Assembly (NCBI GenBank): GCA_946554325.1
Contig: CAMNSB010000002.1
Span: forward strand, 1 to 50,448
DNA: 50,448 bases
Direction: 5' to 3'
DNA from: an uncultured Mycoplasmatota bacterium
GTDB taxonomy: Bacteria; Bacillota_I; Bacilli_A; RF39; UBA660
The notes below the pieces were generated by a model, which saw only the letters and a program-made list of their open reading frames with translations, ran no database searches and was not told the origin of the DNA. This document shows positions 31,823-45,272 of this stretch, piece by piece. The translations under genes and the position numbers were made by a program. The first letter of the stretch is position 1. Every line of letters starts with the position of its first letter.

Positions 31823-32918
31823 TTATTCTCCCCTTTTTAAATTACTTTGTATAAATAAATCTATATCACCATCTAATACTTTTGAGACATTACTTGTTTC
31901 TATATTGGTACGATGATCTTTTACCATGGCGTATGGATGCATAATATAGCTTCTAATTTGTGAACCAAATTCTATATTTTTTTGTTTACCTTTGATGTTA
32001 TCTAGTTCTTGTTTCTGTTTCTCTTCTTCTAATAATAGAAGTTTCATTTTTAGCACTTTCATTGCTTGTTCCTTATTCTGAATTTGGCTTCGCTCATTTT
32101 GGCAGGTTACTATAATTTTAGATGGTAGATGGGTAATTCTTACTGCTGAGTCTGTGGTATTTACCCCTTGTCCACCACAACCGCTAGAGCGATAGACATC
32201 AATTTTTAAGTCTTTTTCGTCAAGTGTAATATCTATTTCTTCTTTCATTTCTGGGGTTATCTCTACAGAAGCAAAAGAGGTATGACGCCTATTATTTGAA
32301 TCAAATGGAGAAAGACGAACTAAGCGATGTACTCCTTTTTCTTGTTTTAAATATCCATAGGCATTTGGTCCTTTGATTAGAATTGTGGCACTTTTGATTC
32401 CTGCTTCTTCTCCATCTTGATAATCTAATAATTCTGTTTTATATTTTTTAGCCTCACACCATCTTCTGTACATTCTATAAAGCATTAATGCCCAATCACA
32501 AGCTTCTGTTCCTCCTGCTCCAGAATGTATTTCTAAAATACAGTTATTATTATCATAGGGACCACTTAAGTACATATAGTATGATAGGTCTTCTAAATCT
32601 TTTTCTATTTTTTCTAAATCACTAGAAATCATTTTTTTTGTTTCTATATCCTCTTCTTCTAATATTTCTAGAAATTCTCTATCCGTTTCCAGACGGCTTT
32701 TCATATCTACTATGGAGCTTGTTATCTTTTTTAGTTCACTTACTCTACTAATTACTTCTTCACTATGTTTTTTATTATCCCAAAAGTTAGGTTTTAGCAT
32801 CTCTTGTTCTAGGGATTTTAATTCTTCTAGGTTTTTTTCTACGTCAAAGTGACCTCCATAATTCTTTTAACTCTGTTTCGGTTTGTTCTAAAAATTTTAC
32901 TATTTCATTTTTGTTCAT
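31823..32918 (-). CDS. prfB: Peptide chain release factor 2 (requires programmed +1 frameshift)
   Basis: Frame 0 from ATG 32918 gives MNKNEIVKFLEQTETELKELWRSL, then an in-frame TGA (32846-32844). The +1 frame continues DVEKNLEELKSLEQEMLKPNFWD... into the 325-aa ORF, which contains the SPF and GGQ motifs. Confidence 0.93.
32843..32857 (-). promoter_or_regulatory. prfB autoregulatory +1 frameshift site
   Basis: Minus-strand GGAGG (32857-32853), 3 nt, then CTT TGA C (32849-32843). This is the canonical SD-like element plus slippery CUU-UGA-C. Confidence 0.9.
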
Positions 32919-33674: not shown

Positions 33675-33998
33675 TTAGGTTACACTAAGTGCCTTTTTTA
33701 TTTTAATATACCATATTTTTAATGCTTCTGAAATATTAAAGTTATAATGGAACAAAAAAGAAAATAGTGTGACTCTTTCTACTATTCTATTTAATGATGT
33801 TTTTAATGCATCTCTATCATATTTATCAGACATATCTCTTGTAAGCATATATTTTTGTTTTTCATTTTTATAGAGTTCATTATTTTGTAGCTCATATTCT
33901 AAATTATGATACCAATATAAGTGTTCTCCTCCTGCTAGAATTAAAACGTCTGCTTTGATATCTAGATTATTTATTAATGTAGATATATACTTCATCAA
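33675..33998 (-). CDS. Hypothetical protein, possibly a gene fragment
   Basis: 107-aa ORF with no recognisable motif. Lies in the decayed accessory segment. Confidence 0.3.
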   Translation of the reverse strand: MMKYISTLINNLDIKADVLILAGGEHLYWYHNLEYELQNNELYKNEKQKYMLTRDMSDKYDRDALKTSLNRIVERVTLFSFLFHYNFNISEALKIWYIKIKKALSVT

Positions 33999-34051
33999 AT
34001 GTCACTGTTGCCTTGTCCTCTTTTAAACTTGGAAACTTTTTCGTTCATACT

Positions 34052-34938
34052 TTATTTATTTGATATTAATTTACTTTCTTCTTTTACTTGTTTTTGTAAT
34101 AATTCCAAATCTTTCATACTTTTACTATTTTGTAAAGATTTCATTTGTCTTTTGGTAGATTTATTTAATCTTATTAATCTTTCTCTCTGTGATAAACCAT
34201 CTTCAATTAATTCGGCACTTGTATTTTGCAAGTTATTTAATATTACTAAATGAAGTAAATCGGTATAATCTCTTATATTTCCTTTTTTAGCAAGTTCTGG
34301 ATTACTTTCTTTCCATTCTTTTGCTGTCATTCCAAATAATGCCACATTTAAAATGTCTGCCTCATCAGAATAAACATATTGTTTTTGACTTTCTGTTAAA
34401 TTAGGAACTATACATTTCTTTATTGCATCAGTATGAACTACATAATTAACTTTTGATAGAAGTCTTGTTGCACTCCACTCTAGTTTATATTGATATGCTT
34501 CATTAGTTTTTAATCTTTCGAATTCAGTTATTAAATATAATTTGAACTCTGGAGATAGCCAACTAGCAAATTCAAAGGCAATATCTGGATGAGCAAAAGT
34601 TCCAATGCTATACCTTCCCCCTTAGAGATAATACCTATTGCATTGGTTCTTTTAATCCATTGAGATGGGGACATTGCAAAAGAATTTCTACCATACTCAG
34701 TTTTAATTTGGTCGAATTCAACCAAATTAAAATCAGGATTATGAATTTCTTCCCATAAACCAATGTAATCAATAGTTGTAATCCTTCTTAACCAATTCTT
34801 TACTGTAAAAGATGGATCACTAGAATTTTGATACTTAGCTAAATCTGTTAATGAAATATAATTAACATTACCTACTCTTAAAATTCCCACTTTATTTTCT
34901 TTAACAATAATTTCTGTTGTTACTTCATCTTTTTTCAA
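34052..34938 (-). pseudogene. KilA-N domain protein gene, disrupted by a 1-nt frameshift in a G5 run
   Basis: The N-terminal ORF (34531..34938) carries a KilA-N-like start (VGILRVGNVNYISLTDLAKY). At the C5/G5 run 34617-34621 the alternative frame continues GGRYSIGTFAHPDIAFEFASWLSPEFKLYLITEFERLK... without stops, in frame with ORF 34052..34345. Confidence 0.75.
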
Positions 34939-34967
34939 TAGATATTATCTCACTTTCTTGAAATTTA

Positions 34968-35150
34968 AAAGGATGTTCACATATTTTTTCTGTTTACATC
35001 CTTTATTTTTAGGGCATTTAAGCCATATTTTTTAATTATTTGCAAACAAATATGAATTTGTTAACATTTTTTAACTTTGCGTGAGTCTAGCAAACCCTTT
35101 ATTTATCTCATTTTCCGCAGCAATTTTTGTACTTTTTGCCCGAACCACAA
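34968..35150. repeat. Distal copy of the att-like direct repeat (displaced secA 3' tail plus terminator region)
   Basis: Collinear with 38743-38916. Shared identical blocks are AAAGGATGT (34968/38743), CATCCTTTA (34997/38773), AATTTGTTA (35055/38831) and CCCGAACCACAA (35139/38905), with one ~10-nt indel. Confidence 0.75.
35108..35149 (-). pseudogene. Displaced secA 3'-terminal remnant (13 codons plus stop)
   Basis: Minus strand TGT GGT TCG GGC AAA AAG TAC AAA AAT TGC TGC GGA AAA TGA translates CGSGKKYKNCCGK*. Live SecA ends CGSGKKYKQCCGK*. Confidence 0.75.
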
Positions 35151-35282
35151 AAACTTTGTACTCCCATATTATCAATACTTACAATATTTATAATATTATT
35201 GATATTTCTATGTTTTTAGGACTAGGTAATTCCTATATTATCCATATTATTAGTATCATTTTTATTATAAATATTTCTCTAC

Positions 35283-35310
35283 TGTGGACAAATTGAGGAC
35301 ATTGTCCACA
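35283..35310. repeat. Inverted pair of TGTGGACAA motifs (candidate integrase arm-type sites)
   Basis: TGTGGACAA (35283-35291), 10 nt, then TTGTCCACA (35302-35310). A third copy, TTGTCCACA, lies at 38795-38803 near the other island end. Confidence 0.4.
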
Positions 35311-35364
35311 TTCGTTCACTGGTATAAGTATATCATATTTTAATTATTTTATAAATTGTGCAAT

Positions 35365-36384
35365 TTATTTATTTTCTATTTGCTTTGTTTCATTTAACAA
35401 TCTATCAAAATCAGATACATAATTATTATCTTGAATGACTTTGAACTTTTCATATTCACTTTCGGCTTTCTCTTTGGCTTGTTTATGAGAAATTTTACCT
35501 TTTCCCTCTAAAACATCATAATGAAATACTCTTAATGCATTTTCTACTTCATTCTTCCAATCATTCATATACATTGCAATATTTCTTTCAGCATTATTTT
35601 CGGCAATATCTAAAAATAAGTTGACTAAATTATTCAAGTTCTTAATTTCTTTTTCATCTAAATAATTTTTAGCAATTATTACATCCGATTTTAGTATCTT
35701 GCCATCAGGAGAATTCTCCCATGTTGTAAGTCCCATATTATCTTTTTTTGCATCAACTCTATTATAAACAATTTCAGCAGCAGTATGACCAGTGATAGCA
35801 AAGTGGAATTTATTTTGAATCGTTTTATAAAACGTTATTGCCATATCACTATCTTTATCATAATCAATTGAACATTCAGCAAATATATCAGTAATTTTTT
35901 GATAAAACATTCTTTCACTTGTACGAATTAACTTAATTCTTTCAAGCAATCTTTTAAAGTATTCTTGATCAGATTTTCGTGCTTTCATAAATCTTTCATC
36001 ATTTAAAGCAAAACCTTGAACCATATAGTCTTTGATTATTTTATTAGCCCAAGTTCTAAATTTAATTGCCTTTTTGGAATTAACTCTAAATCCAATAGAA
36101 ATAATCATATCAAGATTATAATATTTTGTATTATAAGTTTGTTTTCCGTCATTACCCATATGTGCAATTTTTGCACATGTGCTACTTTCATTTAATTCTT
36201 CATCTTTATAAATATTATTGATATGCCTAACAATGCCACTTCTATCAATATTAAAAAGTGTAGATAAAGCTTCAGTATTTAACCAAACATCTTCGTTTTC
36301 AAGTAATACTTCTACTTTAGTATTCCCATCTTCATCATTATAAAATAAAATATTTTTTTCATTTCCAATTAGTTTATCATTCAT
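35365..36384 (-). CDS. RhuM-family (Virulence_RhuM) protein
   Basis: N-terminal ILFYNDEDGNTKVEVLLENEDVWLNTEALSTLFNIDRSGIVRHINNIY and YNLDMIISIGFRVNSKKAIKFRTWA are typical of RhuM-family proteins. Start set to ATG 36384 behind AAGGAGG. Confidence 0.8.
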   Translation of the reverse strand: MNDKLIGNEKNILFYNDEDGNTKVEVLLENEDVWLNTEALSTLFNIDRSGIVRHINNIYKDEELNESSTCAKIAHMGNDGKQTYNTKYYNLDMIISIGFRVNSKKAIKFRTWANKIIKDYMVQGFALNDERFMKARKSDQEYFKRLLERIKLIRTSERMFYQKITDIFAECSIDYDKDSDMAITFYKTIQNKFHFAITGHTAAEIVYNRVDAKKDNMGLTTWENSPDGKILKSDVIIAKNYLDEKEIKNLNNLVNLFLDIAENNAERNIAMYMNDWKNEVENALRVFHYDVLEGKGKISHKQAKEKAESEYEKFKVIQDNNYVSDFDRLLNETKQIENK

Positions 36385-36469
36385 TACTTGCACCTCCTTT
36401 AACAATTATTCATTAAGTAATCAGCTAATAATATTATACTATTTTTTATCTTGCTTAACAATGTTACTA

Positions 36470-37722
36470 CTAAAATTTATCTCTCAAATTTATATCTATT
36501 TCTTTTTCTATTGATTCACAAATTTTAATTAAGTCATTAGTGGTACTAGTAATATAATAATTTTCTGTTGTTTCAGTTCTACTATGACCTAACAACTTAG
36601 AAATGTCTTTTATTTCATTTCCTATTCTTAATGCTTTTGTAGCAAAACTGCCTCTTAAATCATAAAATCTGCAGTTGATTCCTAATTCGTGATGAATAAT
36701 TTTAAATGGATATCTTATAATATCTGTTCCAGAATATGTGCCATCTTTCCTAGTAAATACCATTTCTACTCTATTGCGTTTAGAATAACTTTCCATAATT
36801 TTATATTCCACTAACTTACCAAATTTATTTTTTACTTCTTCTATAATATATCTTTTATACTTTTTTGCATATTGATTTTTTAAATTATTTTGTATATTTT
36901 TATAATCTATTAGTACTGCATATAAACTATCACAAATATAAACCTCCCTTTGACTACCTGGTGTTTTAGTTGTAGCTAAGTACCATCTTCCACTTTCTCC
37001 TTTATCTTTTGCATACACAGTTTTATTTATGTTAATAATTCTATTATCTAAATCTATATCATCCCAAGTTAAAGCAAATACCTCTCCTGTTCTCATACCT
37101 GTATAACAAGCAGTAATAAATGCACATATAAATACTTTATTATTCTTAAATCTATTTAAAATTATTTCTATTTCTTCTTTAGTATAAACGTGCCTTACAT
37201 CGTTTTTTTTGATTCAAATGATAACACTCTAGGTATTTCTAAATCACAGGCTATATTATTTTTAATAAAACCAAAATAATATGTTGCATCTCTTAAAGAG
37301 CTTTTAATAACCTTTTGATAATTTCTTAATGCTTCTTTTGTACTAGAAGTTTGGTATAACTTTAATAATGCTTGATTTAAAATATATGGAGTTAGAACTG
37401 ATAACTTATAATTACCTAATTCTTCTTTTATATTACCAAAAGACTCTTTATATCTCTTTGCAGTAGAATATTTATAATTTATTTCAAAATATTCTTTCAT
37501 CCAGTAATCTAAATAATCTCCATATAACATATTACATTCATTAGTAGTTACCCCATTAATGAATTCATCATATGCTTTTTGTCCTGCTATAAATGCTTCA
37601 TTTTTAGTATTAAATCCACTTTTAGTTATTTGCTTTCTTTTACCATTTACCTTTCCTGCTTCAAAACAATATTGATAGACATTCCCTCTTTTTCTTATAT
37701 TGATCATCTTATCATCTCCCAT
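36470..37722 (-). pseudogene. int: Tyrosine recombinase/integrase with Arm-type N-terminal domain, split by a 1-nt frameshift in an A8 run
   Basis: The N-terminal ORF (MINIRKRGNVYQY...NGKRKQITKSGFNTKNEA, SAM-like core-binding part) stops at 37195. The catalytic ORF (MRTGEVFALTWDDI, YDLRGSFAT, LLGHSRTETTENYY) is open back to 37213. One extra A in the run at 37203-37210 would fuse them into a protein of about 415 aa. Confidence 0.85.
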
Positions 37723-37747
37723 TCTTTGATTATTATTATTCTACATC

Positions 37748-37779
37748 AAAAAAGTGAAGCATTTTTTCTACACTTTCAC
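37748..37779 (-). terminator. Possible terminator between the membrane cassette and the integrase gene
   Basis: Minus-strand GUGAAAG...CUUCAC (6 bp with one bulged A) followed by U6. Confidence 0.4.
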
Positions 37780-37818
37780 ATTTTAACTATCATTTTTTAA
37801 ATTTTCTTTTTTCATTTA

Positions 37819-38232
37819 TTATTTTTTCCAAAACCAAAACAAATATATACTCATAGAAAGCATAGAAAGTACAAAACTTGCAATCAAATATATATAAATA
37901 TATAATTGATAACATTCTAATGAATCTTGAAATGCTACTATTAAGAAAGGTATTACAACACTAATAAAAATAATAATTATAGATAAAATTCGACCAATTT
38001 TAATATCAAGCGTTGAATTAATACTTTTTAATCTTTTCTCATAAATTTTTTTCTGTTGCTCCTTTAATCTTATTTGATAAGATAAATTATCCATATTTCT
38101 TAATCTATTAATATTTTGAATATTATCAATTGCACTAACTATTCGTGGAGTTTTTAAATCTAGATTAGGAATAATAGGTGGCGGTGTAACTAGAGAACTA
38201 AAATCTGGCAATTTTAAATCTGGTAATTTCAT
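37819..38232 (-). CDS. Hypothetical membrane protein (Pro-rich N-terminus, coiled coil, two C-terminal TM helices)
   Basis: ATG 38232 lies 8 nt after AAGGAG and 2 nt after the upstream stop. Sequence MKLPDLKLPDFSSLVTPPPIIPNLDLKTP..., with hydrophobic LSIIIIFISVVIPFLIVAF and IYIYLIASFVLSMLSMSIYLFWFW. Confidence 0.5.
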   Translation of the reverse strand: MKLPDLKLPDFSSLVTPPPIIPNLDLKTPRIVSAIDNIQNINRLRNMDNLSYQIRLKEQQKKIYEKRLKSINSTLDIKIGRILSIIIIFISVVIPFLIVAFQDSLECYQLYIYIYLIASFVLSMLSMSIYLFWFWKK

Positions 38233-38233
38233 C

Positions 38234-38698
38234 TTATTCACTCCTTTCATAAATTTCATCAACTATTATTTCTTCTACCGAATACTTTTCAACTTTTAGT
38301 TGTTTCTTGCACTCTTCTATTGAAATATCATTGCTTATGATTTCTGCAACCATTAACACATATTCTTTTACATATTGATAAAAATCATTTTGTTCTTGTT
38401 CGCTAATATATGGTATGGAATTTGATATTTTGTACTCTTTTCCTTCAAATATTAAATCAATTATAGAATATACATTATCCTCTTTATAAAATCCATATTG
38501 TTCTTCCTTCAGACCATTAAATTGCTTATTCATATTTTCCAATTCAATAGTTATATCTTCAATTGTGCCAATAACTTCATTTTTTTCTTTTTTTAAATCC
38601 ATTACTTTAGAAATAATCAAACCTATAATGATTGCTATAAAAACACCTATTATTTGTATACTATTTAAAATCAATTCTATTAAATTATCCCATTCCAT
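38234..38698 (-). CDS. Hypothetical membrane-anchored protein (N-terminal TM, coiled coil, acidic C-terminal domain)
   Basis: 154 aa. IQIIGVFIAIIIGLIISKV TM segment, then KKEKNEVIGTIEDITIELENMNKQFNGLKEE. No recognisable family. It is the first gene inside the island on the secA side. Confidence 0.5.
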   Translation of the reverse strand: MEWDNLIELILNSIQIIGVFIAIIIGLIISKVMDLKKEKNEVIGTIEDITIELENMNKQFNGLKEEQYGFYKEDNVYSIIDLIFEGKEYKISNSIPYISEQEQNDFYQYVKEYVLMVAEIISNDISIEECKKQLKVEKYSVEEIIVDEIYERSE

Positions 38699-38742
38699 AC
38701 CTTACCGCCTCTCAATTTATTATTTTAACTATTTTCTACAAT

Positions 38743-38916
38743 AAAGGATGTCAACAAATTTTATTTTGCTGGCATCCTTTAATTTTAATGGATTTTGTCC
38801 ACATTTTATTCAATTGGTTGACAAACAACAAATTTGTTACCTTTTTGATTTTTTACTTTTCCCTTATTTTATCTTACTTTCCACAACATTGCTTATACTT
38901 CTTTCCCGAACCACAA
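38743..38916. repeat. secA-proximal copy of the att-like direct repeat
   Basis: See 34968-35150. It covers the last 14 codons of secA and about 130 nt downstream, including the hairpin AAAGGATG...CATCCTTT and one TTGTCCACA motif (38795-38803). Confidence 0.75.
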
Positions 38917-41366
38917 GGACATGGATCATTACGCCCTATTTTTTTTACTCTTTTTGGTTGTTTTTTGCTTTCTTTTTCAGTACCTTCATTTGCTTTTTTA
39001 TTTTTCACTACTTCTTTACGTTCAATATTTTGCCGAATTTCTGCTTTTAACAAGAAGATGGAAGTGTCCTTATCAATCTTTTGTAACATTTGATCAAATA
39101 AATCAAATCCCTCCATTGTGTATGCACGTAGTGGATCTTCTTGAGCATAACCACGAAGTCCAATTCCTTCTCTTAAATGGGACATTGTATTAATATGTTC
39201 CATCCAGTAATTATCAATTACTTGAAGGGAAATTGCTTTTTCAAATTCTCCTGTTACTTCTTCTGGAATTTCTGATAGTTTTTCTTCATAGGCATCCACT
39301 ACCAATTTATATAGTTTGTCAATTACTTCATTTTCATCTTCACCTTTAATGGATGATACTTTAATATCTTTTTTCAATAAATTTTCGTTGGCAAACTCCA
39401 CAATATCTTCCATATCTTCCTCAGTTAAATATCCTTCTGGTGCAATATGGGATTTTACTAAGTCTTCTGTATGATGGCGGAATGTATCTAAAATTGTTTC
39501 ATGAATCGAATCATTATCTAAAATTTCATTTCGCTTATCATACATAATTTCACGTTGATTGTTCATTACATCATCGTATTGTAGCAGTTGTTTACGGGTA
39601 TCAAAGTTGTTTCCTTCTACACGGGTTTGAGCTGTTCCAATTGATTTGGTAAAGGTTTTACTTTGAATAGCTTGCTCTCCAAGTCCCATTGTTTTCATTA
39701 AATCTCGAATTCTATCACTTCCAAAACGAACCATTAACTCATCTTCCATAGAAACGAAGAATTGTGTATATCCTGGATCACCTTGACGGCCAGAACGACC
39801 ACGCAACTGGTTATCTATACGACGAGACTCATGACGTTCTGTACCAACAACACATAATCCGCCTAGTTCTCTAATTTCATCCGATAATTTAATATCAGTA
39901 CCACGTCCAGCCATATTGGTGGCAATGGTTACTGATTTATGTTGACCGATTTTAGAAATAATCTCTGCTTCACGTGCATGGTTTTTGGCATTTAATACTT
40001 CATGTGGTATTTTTGCTTGTTTTAGAAGTTTACTAATTAATTCACTGGTCTCAATTGCAATGGTACCAATCAAAACTGGTTGTCCTCTATTATAACAATC
40101 TTTCACAAAATCAATAATTGCATGATATTTTGCCTCCTGTGTCGCATAGACTAAGTCTGGTGCATCGATTCTTTCTACAGGACGGTTTGTTGGAATTTCA
40201 ATTACATACATATTATAAGTATCACGGAATTCTTCTTCCTCCGTCTTCGCAGTTCCTGTCATACCAGCAAGTTTTTGATACATTCTAAATAAGTTTTGGA
40301 ATGTAATAGTAGCAAGTGTTTTTGTCTCTTGATTAATCGTTACGCCTTCTTTAGCCTCGATTGCTTGATGAAGTCCATCACTATAAGCACGCCCCTTCAT
40401 AAGACGTCCTGTAAATTGATCGACAATTATGATTTCATCATCTTGTACTACATAATCAAAATCTTTCTTCATAGCATAATTTGCACGTAATGCTTGATTG
40501 ATATAGTGTACCAGGGTAGCATTATTTATATCGTATAAATTGTCTATGTGAAACATTTTTTCTGCTTTAACACTTCCAGAGTCATTTAAATTGACACTTT
40601 TTGTCTTCTCATCATAAATATAGTCTTCATCCAATTTTAGCCCTTTTACAAATCGATCAGCATCTATATAAAGGTTGGCACTTTGCATTTGTCCTCCCGA
40701 AATAATAAGTGGGGTTCTTGCTTCATCAATTAAAACTGAGTCAACCTCATCGATAATGGCAAAGTTTAATGGTCTTTGTACTCGTTCTTCTTTATGTACT
40801 ACCATATTGTCTCGTAAGTAATCAAAACCTAATTCGTTATTGGTAGTGTATAAAATATCACAGGCATACTGTTCTTGTTTTTCTTCGGCACTTAAATCAC
40901 GACTATTTACACCAACTGTTAGTCCTAAAAATCTGTGGATTCCACCCATCCATTCTGCATCACGTCCTGCTAAGTATTCATTAACTGTAATAATATGAAC
41001 ACCTTTTCCAGTTAAGGCATTTAAATATGCTGGTAGGACACTTGTTAAAGTTTTTCCTTCACCAGTTTTCATCTCAGCAATATTTCCATAATGAATTGCT
41101 TGTCCACCTAATAGTTGTACATAGAAAGGTTTTTCCCCAATGACACGATATGATGCTTCTCTTGCTACAGCGAAAGCTTCTACTAGAATATCATCTAGAG
41201 TTTCTCCTTTTTTTAATCTTTCTTTAAATTCTTCTGTTTTGGCTTTTAGCTCTGTATCTGTTAGATTAGACATTTCTTCTTCTAGTTCCATAATAGCATC
41301 TGCTTGATGTTCAAACTTTTTTAATTCTTTATATTCATGATCAAACATTTTTCTAATAAAATTCAT
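38874..41366 (-). CDS. secA: Preprotein translocase ATPase SecA
   Basis: 830 aa. MKTGEGKT Walker A, DEVDS, and the C-terminal zinc-binding tail CPCGSGKKYKQCCGK. Confidence 0.97.
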   Translation of the reverse strand: MNFIRKMFDHEYKELKKFEHQADAIMELEEEMSNLTDTELKAKTEEFKERLKKGETLDDILVEAFAVAREASYRVIGEKPFYVQLLGGQAIHYGNIAEMKTGEGKTLTSVLPAYLNALTGKGVHIITVNEYLAGRDAEWMGGIHRFLGLTVGVNSRDLSAEEKQEQYACDILYTTNNELGFDYLRDNMVVHKEERVQRPLNFAIIDEVDSVLIDEARTPLIISGGQMQSANLYIDADRFVKGLKLDEDYIYDEKTKSVNLNDSGSVKAEKMFHIDNLYDINNATLVHYINQALRANYAMKKDFDYVVQDDEIIIVDQFTGRLMKGRAYSDGLHQAIEAKEGVTINQETKTLATITFQNLFRMYQKLAGMTGTAKTEEEEFRDTYNMYVIEIPTNRPVERIDAPDLVYATQEAKYHAIIDFVKDCYNRGQPVLIGTIAIETSELISKLLKQAKIPHEVLNAKNHAREAEIISKIGQHKSVTIATNMAGRGTDIKLSDEIRELGGLCVVGTERHESRRIDNQLRGRSGRQGDPGYTQFFVSMEDELMVRFGSDRIRDLMKTMGLGEQAIQSKTFTKSIGTAQTRVEGNNFDTRKQLLQYDDVMNNQREIMYDKRNEILDNDSIHETILDTFRHHTEDLVKSHIAPEGYLTEEDMEDIVEFANENLLKKDIKVSSIKGEDENEVIDKLYKLVVDAYEEKLSEIPEEVTGEFEKAISLQVIDNYWMEHINTMSHLREGIGLRGYAQEDPLRAYTMEGFDLFDQMLQKIDKDTSIFLLKAEIRQNIERKEVVKNKKANEGTEKESKKQPKRVKKIGRNDPCPCGSGKKYKQCCGK

Positions 41367-43172: not shown

Positions 43173-43766
43173 TTGAAACAAGCATTTTTAAGTAGGTCTA
43201 TGAAGTTTATTATTGCTTATAAAAGTTACACTGATGAAGAAATCGAGAAATTACGTTATGGATTAGAGGGATTATACTTAACTATTACCAAACTTGTTGT
43301 TATTTGTACTCTTGCTATCTTCCTTGATATGGTTAAAGATTTATTCTTATTACTTATATTGTTTAATGTTATTCGATTTTCAGGATTTGGATTTCATGCT
43401 AACAAAAGTTCCGAATGTTTAATTTTTTCTACTATTTTATTCATTGGATTACCTTCATTCATGAAATATTTTGCATTTGGTAATTTTGTATTTGCCATTG
43501 TTGGGGGAATTGGTGTCATCATTCTTGCTATTTATGCACCTGCTGATACTGTTAAACGACCACTACCAAATGTAAGAAAGAGAAAATTTAGAAAGATTGT
43601 TACTACTTGTACTGCTATTATCTACATGTTGCTTGCTTTATTTATTCATAATACTTGTATTAACTATTTATTTATTGTGGCAATCATATTAGAAGCTGTT
43701 ATGGTTAACCCTTTCACATATAAAATATTTGGACAGCCTTATAGAAATTATTTGGCTTATCAATAG
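43173..43766 (+). CDS. agrB: AgrB-like accessory gene regulator (AIP-processing membrane peptidase)
   Basis: 197 aa polytopic protein. N-terminal layout and conserved His/Cys context (FGFHANKSSECLIFS) as in AgrB. TTG start after GAGGTGA. Confidence 0.8.
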   Translation: MKQAFLSRSMKFIIAYKSYTDEEIEKLRYGLEGLYLTITKLVVICTLAIFLDMVKDLFLLLILFNVIRFSGFGFHANKSSECLIFSTILFIGLPSFMKYFAFGNFVFAIVGGIGVIILAIYAPADTVKRPLPNVRKRKFRKIVTTCTAIIYMLLALFIHNTCINYLFIVAIILEAVMVNPFTYKIFGQPYRNYLAYQ

Positions 43767-43820
43767 GCTTAGATATTAGTAATAGTATTTTAAGTAATCT
43801 ATAAGAGAGGAGAAGAGGGT

Positions 43821-43943
43821 ATGAAAAAAAGATTAGCTAAATTTTTTGGTGTTGTTGTACTAATGCTTACTGGTGCGGCATCAATGGGTTGTATGGTACT
43901 TTTAATAGATGAACCGTTAGCACCTGCTAGTTTAAGAGACTAA
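43821..43943 (+). CDS. agrD: AgrD-like autoinducing peptide precursor (unannotated small ORF)
   Basis: GAGAGGAGAAGAGGG RBS region, then ATG 43821. Translates MKKRLAKFFGVVVLMLTGAASMGCMVLLIDEPLAPASLRD*, with an amphipathic leader, a single Cys with hydrophobic residues after it, and an acidic DEP..P..L tail as in AgrD. Lies directly downstream of agrB. Confidence 0.6.
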   Translation: MKKRLAKFFGVVVLMLTGAASMGCMVLLIDEPLAPASLRD

Positions 43944-43958
43944 AAAACTACTGAGAAA

Positions 43959-45272
43959 TCAGTAATTTTTTTTTGGTAATATTACTATTTTTTGAATATA
44001 ATAGTCATCAATTATTCTTCTTTCTACAGTAAACCATTTTTCTTTATTTATTATTTTATTAATCAAATATAATCCTTTACCATGTCCAGTTCCTTTTGTA
44101 CTATATCCCTTTTGTGAAATCTTTTCTATTTTTACTTGGTCTTTTCTAAACTTATTTGATATTACTATATTCGTTGCACTATCCATATTATAAATTTCTA
44201 ATGTTAAAACTTTTTTTTTCATTTTTGCTATTTCATCTATCGCATTATCAATATATACTCCTAAGACTTTTGACAATACTTTATTTTCTTCATAAGTTAG
44301 TTGCTTTAGATTTTTAGTAACATTTTTACTTATATCTAAGACAATAGAAATTTTTTTGTTTTTTGCCACAATTATTTTATAATATAATAAACCTTTAATA
44401 CCACCTTTGGGGATGTTTTTTAATTGTGAGGCAACCATTTGATCTTCTGAATTTATATTGGTACCCATATCATTGATATATTTAATGGCATCTTTTTTCT
44501 TATTCCTTTCAATATATTGTTTTAGAACTGCAAGTTGATTTTTATATTCATGATTATTCAGTGAAATTTCATCAATACTATTTTCTAATTCTTTAAAATA
44601 ATCAAATAGACAATCATATTGAATCATCAAATTATTATATTCATTTCTATCTTTAAAAAAGATTAGAATTATGATTATGTATGTTACTGCAATTAGTAAG
44701 TTTATAAAGTATTGTTCACTCCATTGAAAATTCATACTAATATTATATAATACATATAAAATTACAACAATAGATGCTGTTAATAAAAATAAGGTTGAGA
44801 ATCTACTTCGATCGTTTAAATTGAAAATAAAATTTTTTAATTTATTTTTTATTGGAGTTATATTAATTATCATAATAGTAGCTCCACAAACAATAATATT
44901 AAATGGTAATATGTAATATCATATTCCTCTAACTTGTTCTATAGTCACCCAATTTATAAGTACTAGACTACCCATCAAGTCTGAAATAGAAAGTATTGCT
45001 ATCGTTATTAAAAGCGTTATTGTTATTTTATATATACTTTGCCTTGTTAAAAATTTAAAGGCTATAATATATAAGACTAGTTTTAATATGCCACTTTCTC
45101 CACTATATTTTACTTGATATGAAAAATAAGTAATAATTGTCAATATTGCTATTAGTAGTAATTGGTTTTTCTTTGTTGGTTTATATTCCTTATCTAACAT
45201 TGTTTTCATCAAATGCATTAAAGTTATGGCACAAATAGCTGCACATATTATTTTTACTACAATATTTGTCAT
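43959..45272 (-). pseudogene. agrC: AgrC-like sensor histidine kinase interrupted by a single in-frame TGA
   Basis: ORF 44919..45272 (4 TM) and ORF 43959..44873 (2 TM plus HEYKNQL H-box, IDNAIDE N-box, GYSTKGTGHGKGLY G-box) are in the same frame. They are separated only by TGA 44919-44921 and the hydrophobic read-through YYILPFNIIVCGATI. The combined 437 codons match AgrC length. Confidence 0.75.

Follow-up and report, generated by a model that had tools for sequence, protein, structure and literature searches.

We analyzed a window of 50,448 nucleotides (nt), the whole stretch of DNA under study, from an uncultured Mycoplasmatota bacterium (contig CAMNSB010000002.1), in which the 3' end of secA is followed by an integrase-bearing segment, here called island A, and then by the remains of a cassette with a KilA-N gene. 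Island A extends from 38904 to 35151 in the direction of secA transcription and comprises, in this order, a secA tail, an arm with a hairpin, two membrane genes, an integrase gene, a RhuM gene and a right arm of 214 nt, that is, four genes in 3.8 kilobases (kb). Two direct repeats bracket the island, the genes between them are all on the secA strand, and the G+C content of the island is 24.7% as compared to 30-34% in the flanks. Listed from secA onward, with lengths in amino acids (aa) and sources in brackets (ORF, open reading frame), the features of the locus are:

38874..41366, minus strand: secA, 830 aa, the target gene; its frame is intact through the SEC-C zinc-finger tail (ORF list; Pfam SecA_DEAD, SecA_PP_bind, SecA_SW and SEC-C)
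38905..38916, no strand: core region of attL, which reads TTGTGGTTCGGG in the direction of secA and encodes Cys-Gly-Ser-Gly; a crossover in or next to TGTGG is probable (the 12-mer occurs twice in the window; all tail and P-arm homology boundaries fall here)
38874..38904, minus strand: surrogate secA tail borne by the element (..KKYKQCCGK, then stop), now the live SecA end (its sequence goes with the kind of element next to it and not with the SecA tree; L011, L110 and L082 have nearly the same tail)
38742..38873, minus strand: P' arm of island A with conserved blocks AACAAATTTGTTGTTTGTCAAC and AAATGTGGACAAA; a hairpin at 38742-38781 probably ends secA transcription (the arm aligns with those of 10 related elements found in very different hosts; -19.7 kcal/mol, z = -5.0)
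38234..38698, minus strand: cargo slot 1, gene A, 154 aa, with an N-terminal membrane helix and no family match (ORF list, family searches)
37819..38262, minus strand: cargo slot 1, gene B, 147 aa, with a C-terminal membrane segment and a weak resemblance to PycTM effectors (E = 1.3e-4, alone not significant; ORF list, PADLOC)
36470..37722, minus strand: gene for a tyrosine integrase, split over two frames, with arm-binding, SAM-like and catalytic domains (Pfam, frame analysis, homologues)
37203..37210, minus strand: A8 tract (T8 on the plus strand) at an integrase domain boundary; with a -1 slip or a ninth A, the two frames become one (allele comparison)
35365..36405, minus strand: cargo slot 2, RhuM-family gene, 346 aa (PF13310, E = 3e-101; PADLOC PDC-S05, E = 3e-134)
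35151..35364, minus strand: P arm (right end) of island A, 214 nt, in which TGTGGACA/TGTCCACA and GATAATA-type repeats are candidate arm-type integrase sites (72-91% identity to segments of relatives)
35139..35150, no strand: core region of attR in island A; the older KilA-N cassette has its left junction at the same place (repeat alignment, junction comparison)
35108..35138, minus strand: orphan secA tail (..KKYKNCCGK, then stop), which served the KilA-N cassette as surrogate tail until the arrival of island A displaced it (tail comparison)
34939..35107, minus strand: P' arm of the KilA-N cassette with a hairpin at 34968-35004 (-16.6 kcal/mol, z = -4.8; 92% and 91% identity to L028 and L067)
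34052..34938, minus strand: frameshifted KilA-N pseudogene in pieces of 135 and 97 aa (Pfam, intact copies in relatives)
33675..34044, minus strand: deletion junction, mapped to about 34039-34044, followed by what is left of the 3' part of a Ppx/GppA-like chromosomal gene (intact gene after secA in L004; junction mapping)

The two repeats (34968-35150 and 38743-38916) are collinear, lie on the same strand and are about 180 nt long. Their gapped local alignment scored 61, as compared to a mean of 11.7 (standard deviation 2.3, maximum 26) for 2951 random pairs of window segments, and their identity was about 75-78% (MAFFT). Furthermore, the 12-mer CCCGAACCACAA at the secA-side edge of the repeats occurred exactly twice in 50 kb, even when one mismatch was permitted, while 0.06 occurrences were expected. 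The repeat is real and far beyond chance. The original prediction, made from the letters of this DNA, had described the pair as collinear and as sharing identical blocks, and the blocks AAAGGATGT, CATCCTTTA and AATTTGTTA were found in both copies; it had also placed an integrase gene, a RhuM gene and two membrane genes between them, as is confirmed by the ORF list and Pfam. The proximal copy spans the final 14 codons and the stop codon of secA, and the distal copy still translates as a SecA tail on the minus strand (35149->35108), where it reads CGSGKKYKNCCGK followed by a stop, so that the SecA zinc-finger tail is encoded in both repeats. Past the core, the distal tail differed from the live one by seven synonymous codon changes, by TAA versus TGA and by a single Q->N replacement, in line with the claim that the differences are mostly at third positions. 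Moreover, tail diversity was 0.07-0.09 at codon positions 1 and 2 versus 0.51 at position 3, and this coding-type pattern was the same in live (n=62) and orphan (n=22) tails, as would be expected from the earlier suggestion that both tails evolved as coding sequence. The abrupt end of similarity held as well: homology stopped at the Cys-Gly codons in all copies examined.

A SecA scan of species-representative genomes gave 80 loci (L002-L081; L numbers refer to the compared loci throughout), nearly all in metagenome-assembled genomes (MAGs) of uncultured gut 'Bacilli', 'Tenericutes' or 'Mollicutes' and with SecA 78-96% identical. Many of these loci had an integrase gene about 200 nt past the secA stop codon, and others had cargo first and then the integrase, like the window. 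One to four extra tails on the secA strand were present in about 17 of about 38 informative loci, and all of them began at the Cys-Gly-Ser-Gly codons. Arrays comprised five tails in 7.4 kb in L019 (12452-19872), four in L018 (12455-22194), three in L063 (12464-18471) and three in L031; the units of L019 contained one to three genes each, encoding hypothetical proteins and an ATP-binding-cassette-like protein, and no integrase, and L085, likewise a locus with an array of three to five tails, contained two integrase elements in tandem. Contigs ended within 600 nt after the secA stop in 33 of the 80 loci (within 150 nt in 20 of these) versus within 600 nt before the secA start in 4 of 80, an asymmetry that is expected where strains differ at one point. 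In L004 (SecA 95% identical) the site was unoccupied: secA was followed by 70 nt, a Ppx/GppA-like gene, an M23 peptidase gene and prfB, and nothing there resembled the post-stop repeat. Judged from these genomes, the secA end is a clade-wide insertion hotspot.

The same comparisons bear on whether the repeats have anything to do with integration. A dispersed repeat, such as a repetitive extragenic palindromic (REP) or miniature inverted-repeat transposable element (MITE)-like sequence, or else a chance or local duplication, might be considered for an AT-rich region with a hairpin, since many dispersed repeats look like this. However, the 12-mer was confined to its two positions in the window, the homology boundary fell at the same codon everywhere, and all matches to the 180-nt segment, in a comparison of more than 100 loci, lay at secA ends or in orphan tails on the secA strand. 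The repeat region contained no Rfam family and no tRNA, and no tRNA or tmRNA gene was found in the window. We give this explanation next to no credence. The view that a site-specific, integrase-type island sits in the 3' end of secA was instead borne out by the repeats, their boundaries and the unoccupied L004 site.

We then compared each tail with the elements next to it. The proximal tail and the following ~140 nt aligned block by block with the post-secA DNA wherever a related integrase element follows, and the same arm stands ahead of related integrases in L110, L106, L087, L082, L063 and L047. The host SecA proteins of L110 and L106 are 48% and about 42% identical to that of the window, and the N-terminal half of the L110 integrase is 90% identical. 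The live tails of these arm-bearing loci all read TGTGGTTCGGG, and the tails past their right arms are mixed (GGAAGTGG, GGCAGTGG and GGCTCTGG). Since the same segment recurs with related integrases in hosts with 42-48% SecA identity, the proximal tail and arm are best regarded as element DNA, namely a P' arm, and the proposal that one tail is derived from the element is upheld for this copy and the hairpin after it. At the other end of island A, the right arm (35151-35364) was 72-91% identical to segments in L018, L047, L054, L063 (two copies), L082-85 and L110, and each of these matches stopped exactly at the orphan tail.

The distal copy had a different affiliation. It was 92% identical over 211 nt to L028 6549-6759, which is the live secA tail and spacer of that locus and is followed by an intact KilA-N gene of 294 aa, and 91% identical to L067 13394-13605 (211-212 nt), where an orphan tail is again joined to KilA-N. 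Intact KilA-N genes of 294-296 aa, with a PADLOC match to the candidate family PDC-S22, were found in L028, L046 and L068, and in L028 and L067 the KilA-N units are flanked by tails on both sides. On its left side, the KilA-N cassette has an att site and an arm homologous to their counterparts in island A; in the window, a deletion has removed its right end. Because the distal repeat is 91-92% identical to the left ends of KilA-N cassettes, it is to be read as the left arm of an older cassette. About 10 nt beyond the KilA-N stop, at ~34039-34044, the window passes abruptly into the Ppx-like gene at codon ~158. Here the KilA-N cassette has lost its right end, secA its native tail and the Ppx-like gene ~157 codons. 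In the window species, this Ppx/GppA-like gene (~293 aa in L004, 4622-5503) is cut to its last ~107 codons. Four same-species contigs (L097, L099, L101 and L102) shared this deletion junction, and two others of the same species (L098 and L100) diverged at 33811 into other cargo, a Fic-domain region. Thus, the interval between secA and the M23 peptidase gene varies between strains.

These affiliations also decide against the view taken in the original prediction, that there is a single island and that the distal copy is the displaced native secA tail with its original terminator. That view accounts for one copy on each side of an integrase-bearing segment and for the coding-type divergence between the two. 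However, the distal tail and arm match the left ends of KilA-N cassettes at 91-92% in hosts whose SecA is only ~81-82% identical, and serve as the live tail in L028; a KilA-N pseudogene directly follows the distal copy in the window; the closest empty site, in L004, has no such arm or hairpin past secA; and the chromosomal gene expected next is truncated at the deletion junction. We therefore consider a native origin of the distal copy highly improbable. As far as can be read from the compared loci, the window holds two stacked elements, the older of which is decayed and truncated; the DNA past the distal repeat, treated as flank in the original prediction, belongs to this decayed KilA-N cassette and is not simply chromosomal.

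The alignments of junctions narrowed the core. The left junction was TGTGGTTCGGG in about 12 related elements, and the right junction ran on as TGTGG-AAGTGG, -CAGTGG, -CTCTGG and similar sequences. Across these elements, left and right junctions overlapped in TGTGG only, possibly with a flanking base, and the 12-mer that had been proposed as the att core thus shrinks to this pentamer in the family as a whole; the 12-nt identity is longer in the window because both of its tails derive from the same att family. In three metagenome contigs (L105, L107 and L108), which belong to distant bacteria with CH-type tails (..KKYKQCHGK..) and SecA 42-46% identical, the 30-nt sequence CCATGTCCTTGTGGTTCGGG[AC]AA[AG]AAGTA[CT] was present verbatim at the secA end. 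To judge from these matches, it is the core DNA, not the peptide alone, that recurs far beyond this clade, and it is nucleotide-conserved even in Proteobacteria.

Taken together, these data make it very probable that two mobile cassettes are stacked in the 3' end of secA, and that they belong to a family served by lambda-type integrases in which each element brings its own tail and arm. The repeats, their boundaries, the element-linked tails, the empty site of a relative and the spread across hosts are apparent in the compared sequences, and from them we infer the recombination chemistry, the function of the terminator and whether island A can still move. In the mechanism that we propose, a lambda-type tyrosine integrase would recombine attP, consisting of P arm, core and P' arm, with the Cys-Gly codons of the SecA zinc finger (..CPCGSGKKYKxCCGK, then stop), the crossover taking place in or beside TGTGG. 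To the right of the core, each element would carry the last ~10 secA codons, the stop codon and an arm of ~140 nt with a terminator-like hairpin, so that after integration SecA would end in element DNA and keep its full length, while the earlier tail would be pushed downstream as an orphan. Island A would have entered a secA gene whose end already came from the single-gene KilA-N cassette; the latter would then have decayed, its gene being frameshifted and its right end lost in a deletion that also took the native tail and a portion of the chromosomal gene beyond. Successive arrivals would displace earlier units downstream and in this way build arrays, and integrase-less units that share the arm family, such as KilA-N cassettes and the L019 units, could move in trans, as has been proposed for cis-mobilizable elements (CIMEs). 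A full-length island A integrase would require a -1 slip or a change from A8 to A9.

Several observations weigh against this interpretation. A simple terminator scan called neither hairpin, as the loops exceeded its limit and the proximal U-tract is weak; direct folding, in contrast, gave a stable hairpin in both copies (z about -5), and the hairpin probably terminates secA transcription. The orphan tails were first sought by a peptide pattern, which favors intact copies, and degenerate ones exist. Checks for an empty site gave a divided answer: L004 is unoccupied but is a different species, so that the ancestral state of its site is a deduction, and exact-protein look-ups with SecA, the M23 peptidase and the upstream 189-aa protein returned only occupied or truncated contigs of the same species. 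We also scanned metagenome contigs from JGI and viral contigs from IMG/VR with one degenerate 30-mer covering attL, attR, the predicted attP and the restored attB. The predicted attP junction was GGGAGTACAAAGTTTT-TGTGGTTCGGG-AAAGAAGTATAAGC (longer form ...GATAATATGGGAGTACAAAGTTTT TGTGGTTCGGG AAAGAAGTATAAGCAATGTTGTGG), and the predicted junction of a restored secA::KilA-type site was GATCCATGTCCT-TGTGGTTCGGG-CAAAAAGTACAAAAATTG (longer form ...GGGCGTAATGATCCATGTCCT TGTGGTTCGGG CAAAAAGTACAAAAATTGCTGCGG). The metagenome contigs gave eight matches, all at the ends of secA or SEC-C-type genes and either occupied or apparently native, two of which were the new occupied sites L110 and L106, and the viral contigs gave none. 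The excised-circle and repaired-site junctions that the original prediction had called for did not appear in these exact-pattern contig scans, which found no attP and no same-species attB. Finally, the integrase gene is interrupted at A8, and island A may not move unaided, all the more as no excisionase-like gene is visible in it.

We examined this interruption, which the original prediction does not mention, by comparing integrase alleles. The protein contains the domains PF00589 (E = 1.3e-14), Arm-DNA-bind_4 and Phage_int_SAM_3; the first frame (37195-37722) encodes the arm-binding and SAM-like domains and the second (36470-37096) the catalytic domain, with a 1-nt frameshift in A8 between them. 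Adding one A yields a protein of 417 aa, with which many full-length integrases share 67-82% identity; without a slip, the product would be an arm-binding and SAM-like protein of 175 aa. A8 occurred at the same codon in the window's own allele and in L047, L063, L110 and L106, the L047 state being judged from the allele comparison only; L082 and L086 had A9 and a single frame, and L067 had A7 where A6 is needed. None of these six interrupted alleles (five with A8, and L067), which are ~50-90% identical to that of the window, had further stops in either half. ORFs for the C-terminal part only formed four protein clusters with 94 member sequences, which indicates that the A8 state is common and persistent. 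Furthermore, A8 and A9 alleles were interspersed in the tree: L106 (A8) and L086 (A9) are 95% identical, and the full-length integrase P0001 groups with L063 and L110. Thus, tract length has changed repeatedly among close relatives.

The heptamer A_AAA_AAA with a nearby stop is a classic slippery context for -1 frameshifting or transcriptional slippage. As judged from the alleles, the tract fits reversible length switching, leaky slippage or both; reversible variation in length would fit at least as well as a programmed -1 frameshift, and recurrent simple inactivation of the integrase may also be compatible with these data. A programmed frameshift fixed in the clade was considered and dropped after L086 (A9), L106 (A8) and the tree had revealed repeated switching. 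A related possibility concerns island A as a whole, namely that it integrated site-specifically and is now a fixed, immobile remnant, its integrase killed by the A8 frameshift and its split ORF functionless. In keeping with this, the integrase is in two frames and in an identical state in a second assembly (L001), the neighboring KilA-N cassette has clearly decayed, the island lacks a recognizable excisionase gene, and only occupied sites were found for the window species. However, the uninterrupted halves of the six alleles, the interspersed A8 and A9 states, the 94 sequences in the C-terminal-only clusters and the slippery context all speak against it, and we regard an immobile remnant as less likely than not. 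Three full-length integrases (P0005-P0007) read ..ELKKRYTNEE.. and are about six residues short right past the A tract; here, a secondary deletion could have brought an A8 ancestor back into frame.

Relatives of the integrase occur in other lineages. Integrases with 82% and 67% identity adjoin secA in other lineages, one of them next to a SecA of 914 aa, and relatives with ~50% identity occur as excisionase-integrase (Xis-Int) pairs, with an HTH_17 Xis-like protein, that end larger elements near prfB or beside a SEC-C ORF. Directly past one such ~50%-identical pair, in L092 (5097-5756), lies an ORF of 219 aa that matches SEC-C weakly; it may contain an orphan tail within its frame or represent a second kind of SEC-C target. 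An integron was considered and rejected, as the bit scores with the NCBIfam integron-integrase models were 46.7 (cut-off 265) and 27.4 (cut-off 435).

The cargo of the elements has traveled between hosts. At a SecA identity of 81-83%, genomes had RhuM proteins with 87-92% and KilA-N proteins with 96% identity, and in relatives the same slots contained a Ser/Thr kinase, Fic, MqsR, SocA or DUF3800; the slot between P' arm and integrase was occupied by the kinase in L082 and by a 179-aa ORF in L063. PADLOC assigned RhuM to PDC-S05 and intact KilA-N to PDC-S22, both candidate phage-defense families. By this comparison of identities, the element family is spread across hosts. The integrase and cargo could also be taken to indicate a prophage remnant or a phage satellite, resembling a phage-inducible chromosomal island (PICI), that uses secA as its attachment site: the integrase matches phage families (PHROG 1), its nearest phage homologues being C. 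difficile phage integrases with ~32% identity, and KilA-N and RhuM/Bro-N domains are frequent in phages. However, the 3.8-kb island has no replication, packaging, capsid or regulatory module, the integrase is its sole PHROG match (the other match, the intact KilA-N of L028, belongs to the neighboring cassette type), and the junction scan of viral contigs was empty. A phage or satellite origin thus seems quite improbable to us.

With respect to the two-cassette interpretation, the closest precedents concern other genes. Phage 21 and e14 integrate into Escherichia coli icd by a tyrosine integrase and bring an alternative 3' end with mostly synonymous changes, leaving the displaced end at the far junction. 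Likewise, the elements described here target the 3' part of a housekeeping gene that is kept functional by the element's own 3' end; they differ in that the last ~12 secA codons rather than ~50 icd codons are involved, and in that they are tandem-stacked cassettes of 1-5 kb, not prophages, with a surrogate piece that includes a terminator-like hairpin. ICESt1, ICESt3 and CIMEs accumulate at the 3' end of Streptococcus thermophilus fda by accretion-mobilization, and composite staphylococcal cassette chromosome (SCC) arrays form at the 3' end of rlmH/orfX. These share with the secA arrays the 3' end of a conserved gene, att-bounded arrays and, putatively, integrase-less units with common att sites, whereas the secA units have no conjugation or mobilization genes, are far smaller and are often single-gene, and SCC uses serine recombinases; for the parallel with CIMEs, it is the shared arms that suggest trans-mobilization at secA. 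Integrons are similar to strings of the L019 type in that units of one to three genes are each bounded by a short conserved site and contain no integrase, but the secA sites are duplex att sites with core and arms, not folded attC sites, and a terminator starts each unit, which leaves no common promoter. The integrases of Tn916 and Tn1549 (PDB 6en0, 6emz) have the same three-domain layout as that of island A, with marginal similarity (E about 1e-4), but secA-tail integration is strictly site-specific and island A is without a Xis gene. Islands in tRNA and tmRNA genes (Islander/TIGER class) split their target, regenerate it and leave the displaced fragment at the far end, and tandem islands are common among them (PMC4383910). 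The secA islands follow the same logic, except that a protein zinc-finger motif is targeted and not an RNA gene.

As a mechanism, a surrogate 3' end with tandem accretion is already known; the secA target and the element family appear to be undescribed. No report of secA as an attachment site was found in the full-text literature searched, and large island databases may list it; the earlier remark that secA is an unusual site stands in this respect and fails within the clade, where it is a common hotspot. The last codons of secA thus join the attachment sites in protein genes, and their heavy use would be harmless since the elements bring a replacement tail and a terminator. Moreover, the interval between secA and prfB offers a ready marker for flexible and candidate defense genes in a large, uncultured, reduced-genome lineage of the gut, and the hotspot accounts for a systematic break of MAG assemblies past secA. 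With a nucleotide-conserved core, the integrases may find unusually many available targets, a property of interest in the search for integrase tools, and the A8/A9 tract of the integrase is a compact candidate mobility switch. Going further, we can tentatively picture, as a speculation that we hold more doubtful than probable, the secA zinc-finger tail as a landing pad of integron-like character, shared by uncultured gut Bacilli and certain other Firmicutes. It would receive cassettes of one to four, mostly candidate-defense, genes, each with a spare SecA tail and a terminator, which would be stacked, displaced and possibly shuffled in trans by one integrase family gated by the A8/A9 tract through phase variation or frameshifting; the 175-aa product would be a possible regulator, and orphan tails would be reserve ends that go live upon excision upstream.

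Two further features of the window lie outside the elements. The two-frame state of prfB at 32843-32857 (minus strand), where CTTTGAC comes after GGAGG, is no error; this is the usual site at which release factor 2 (RF2) regulates its own synthesis by +1 frameshifting. A few kb upstream of secA (43173-44873; L001 4137-7010), there is an agr-like quorum-sensing set that is kept in relatives and consists of AgrB, an AgrD-like peptide of 40 aa, a HATPase_c_5 sensor kinase and a LytTR regulator.

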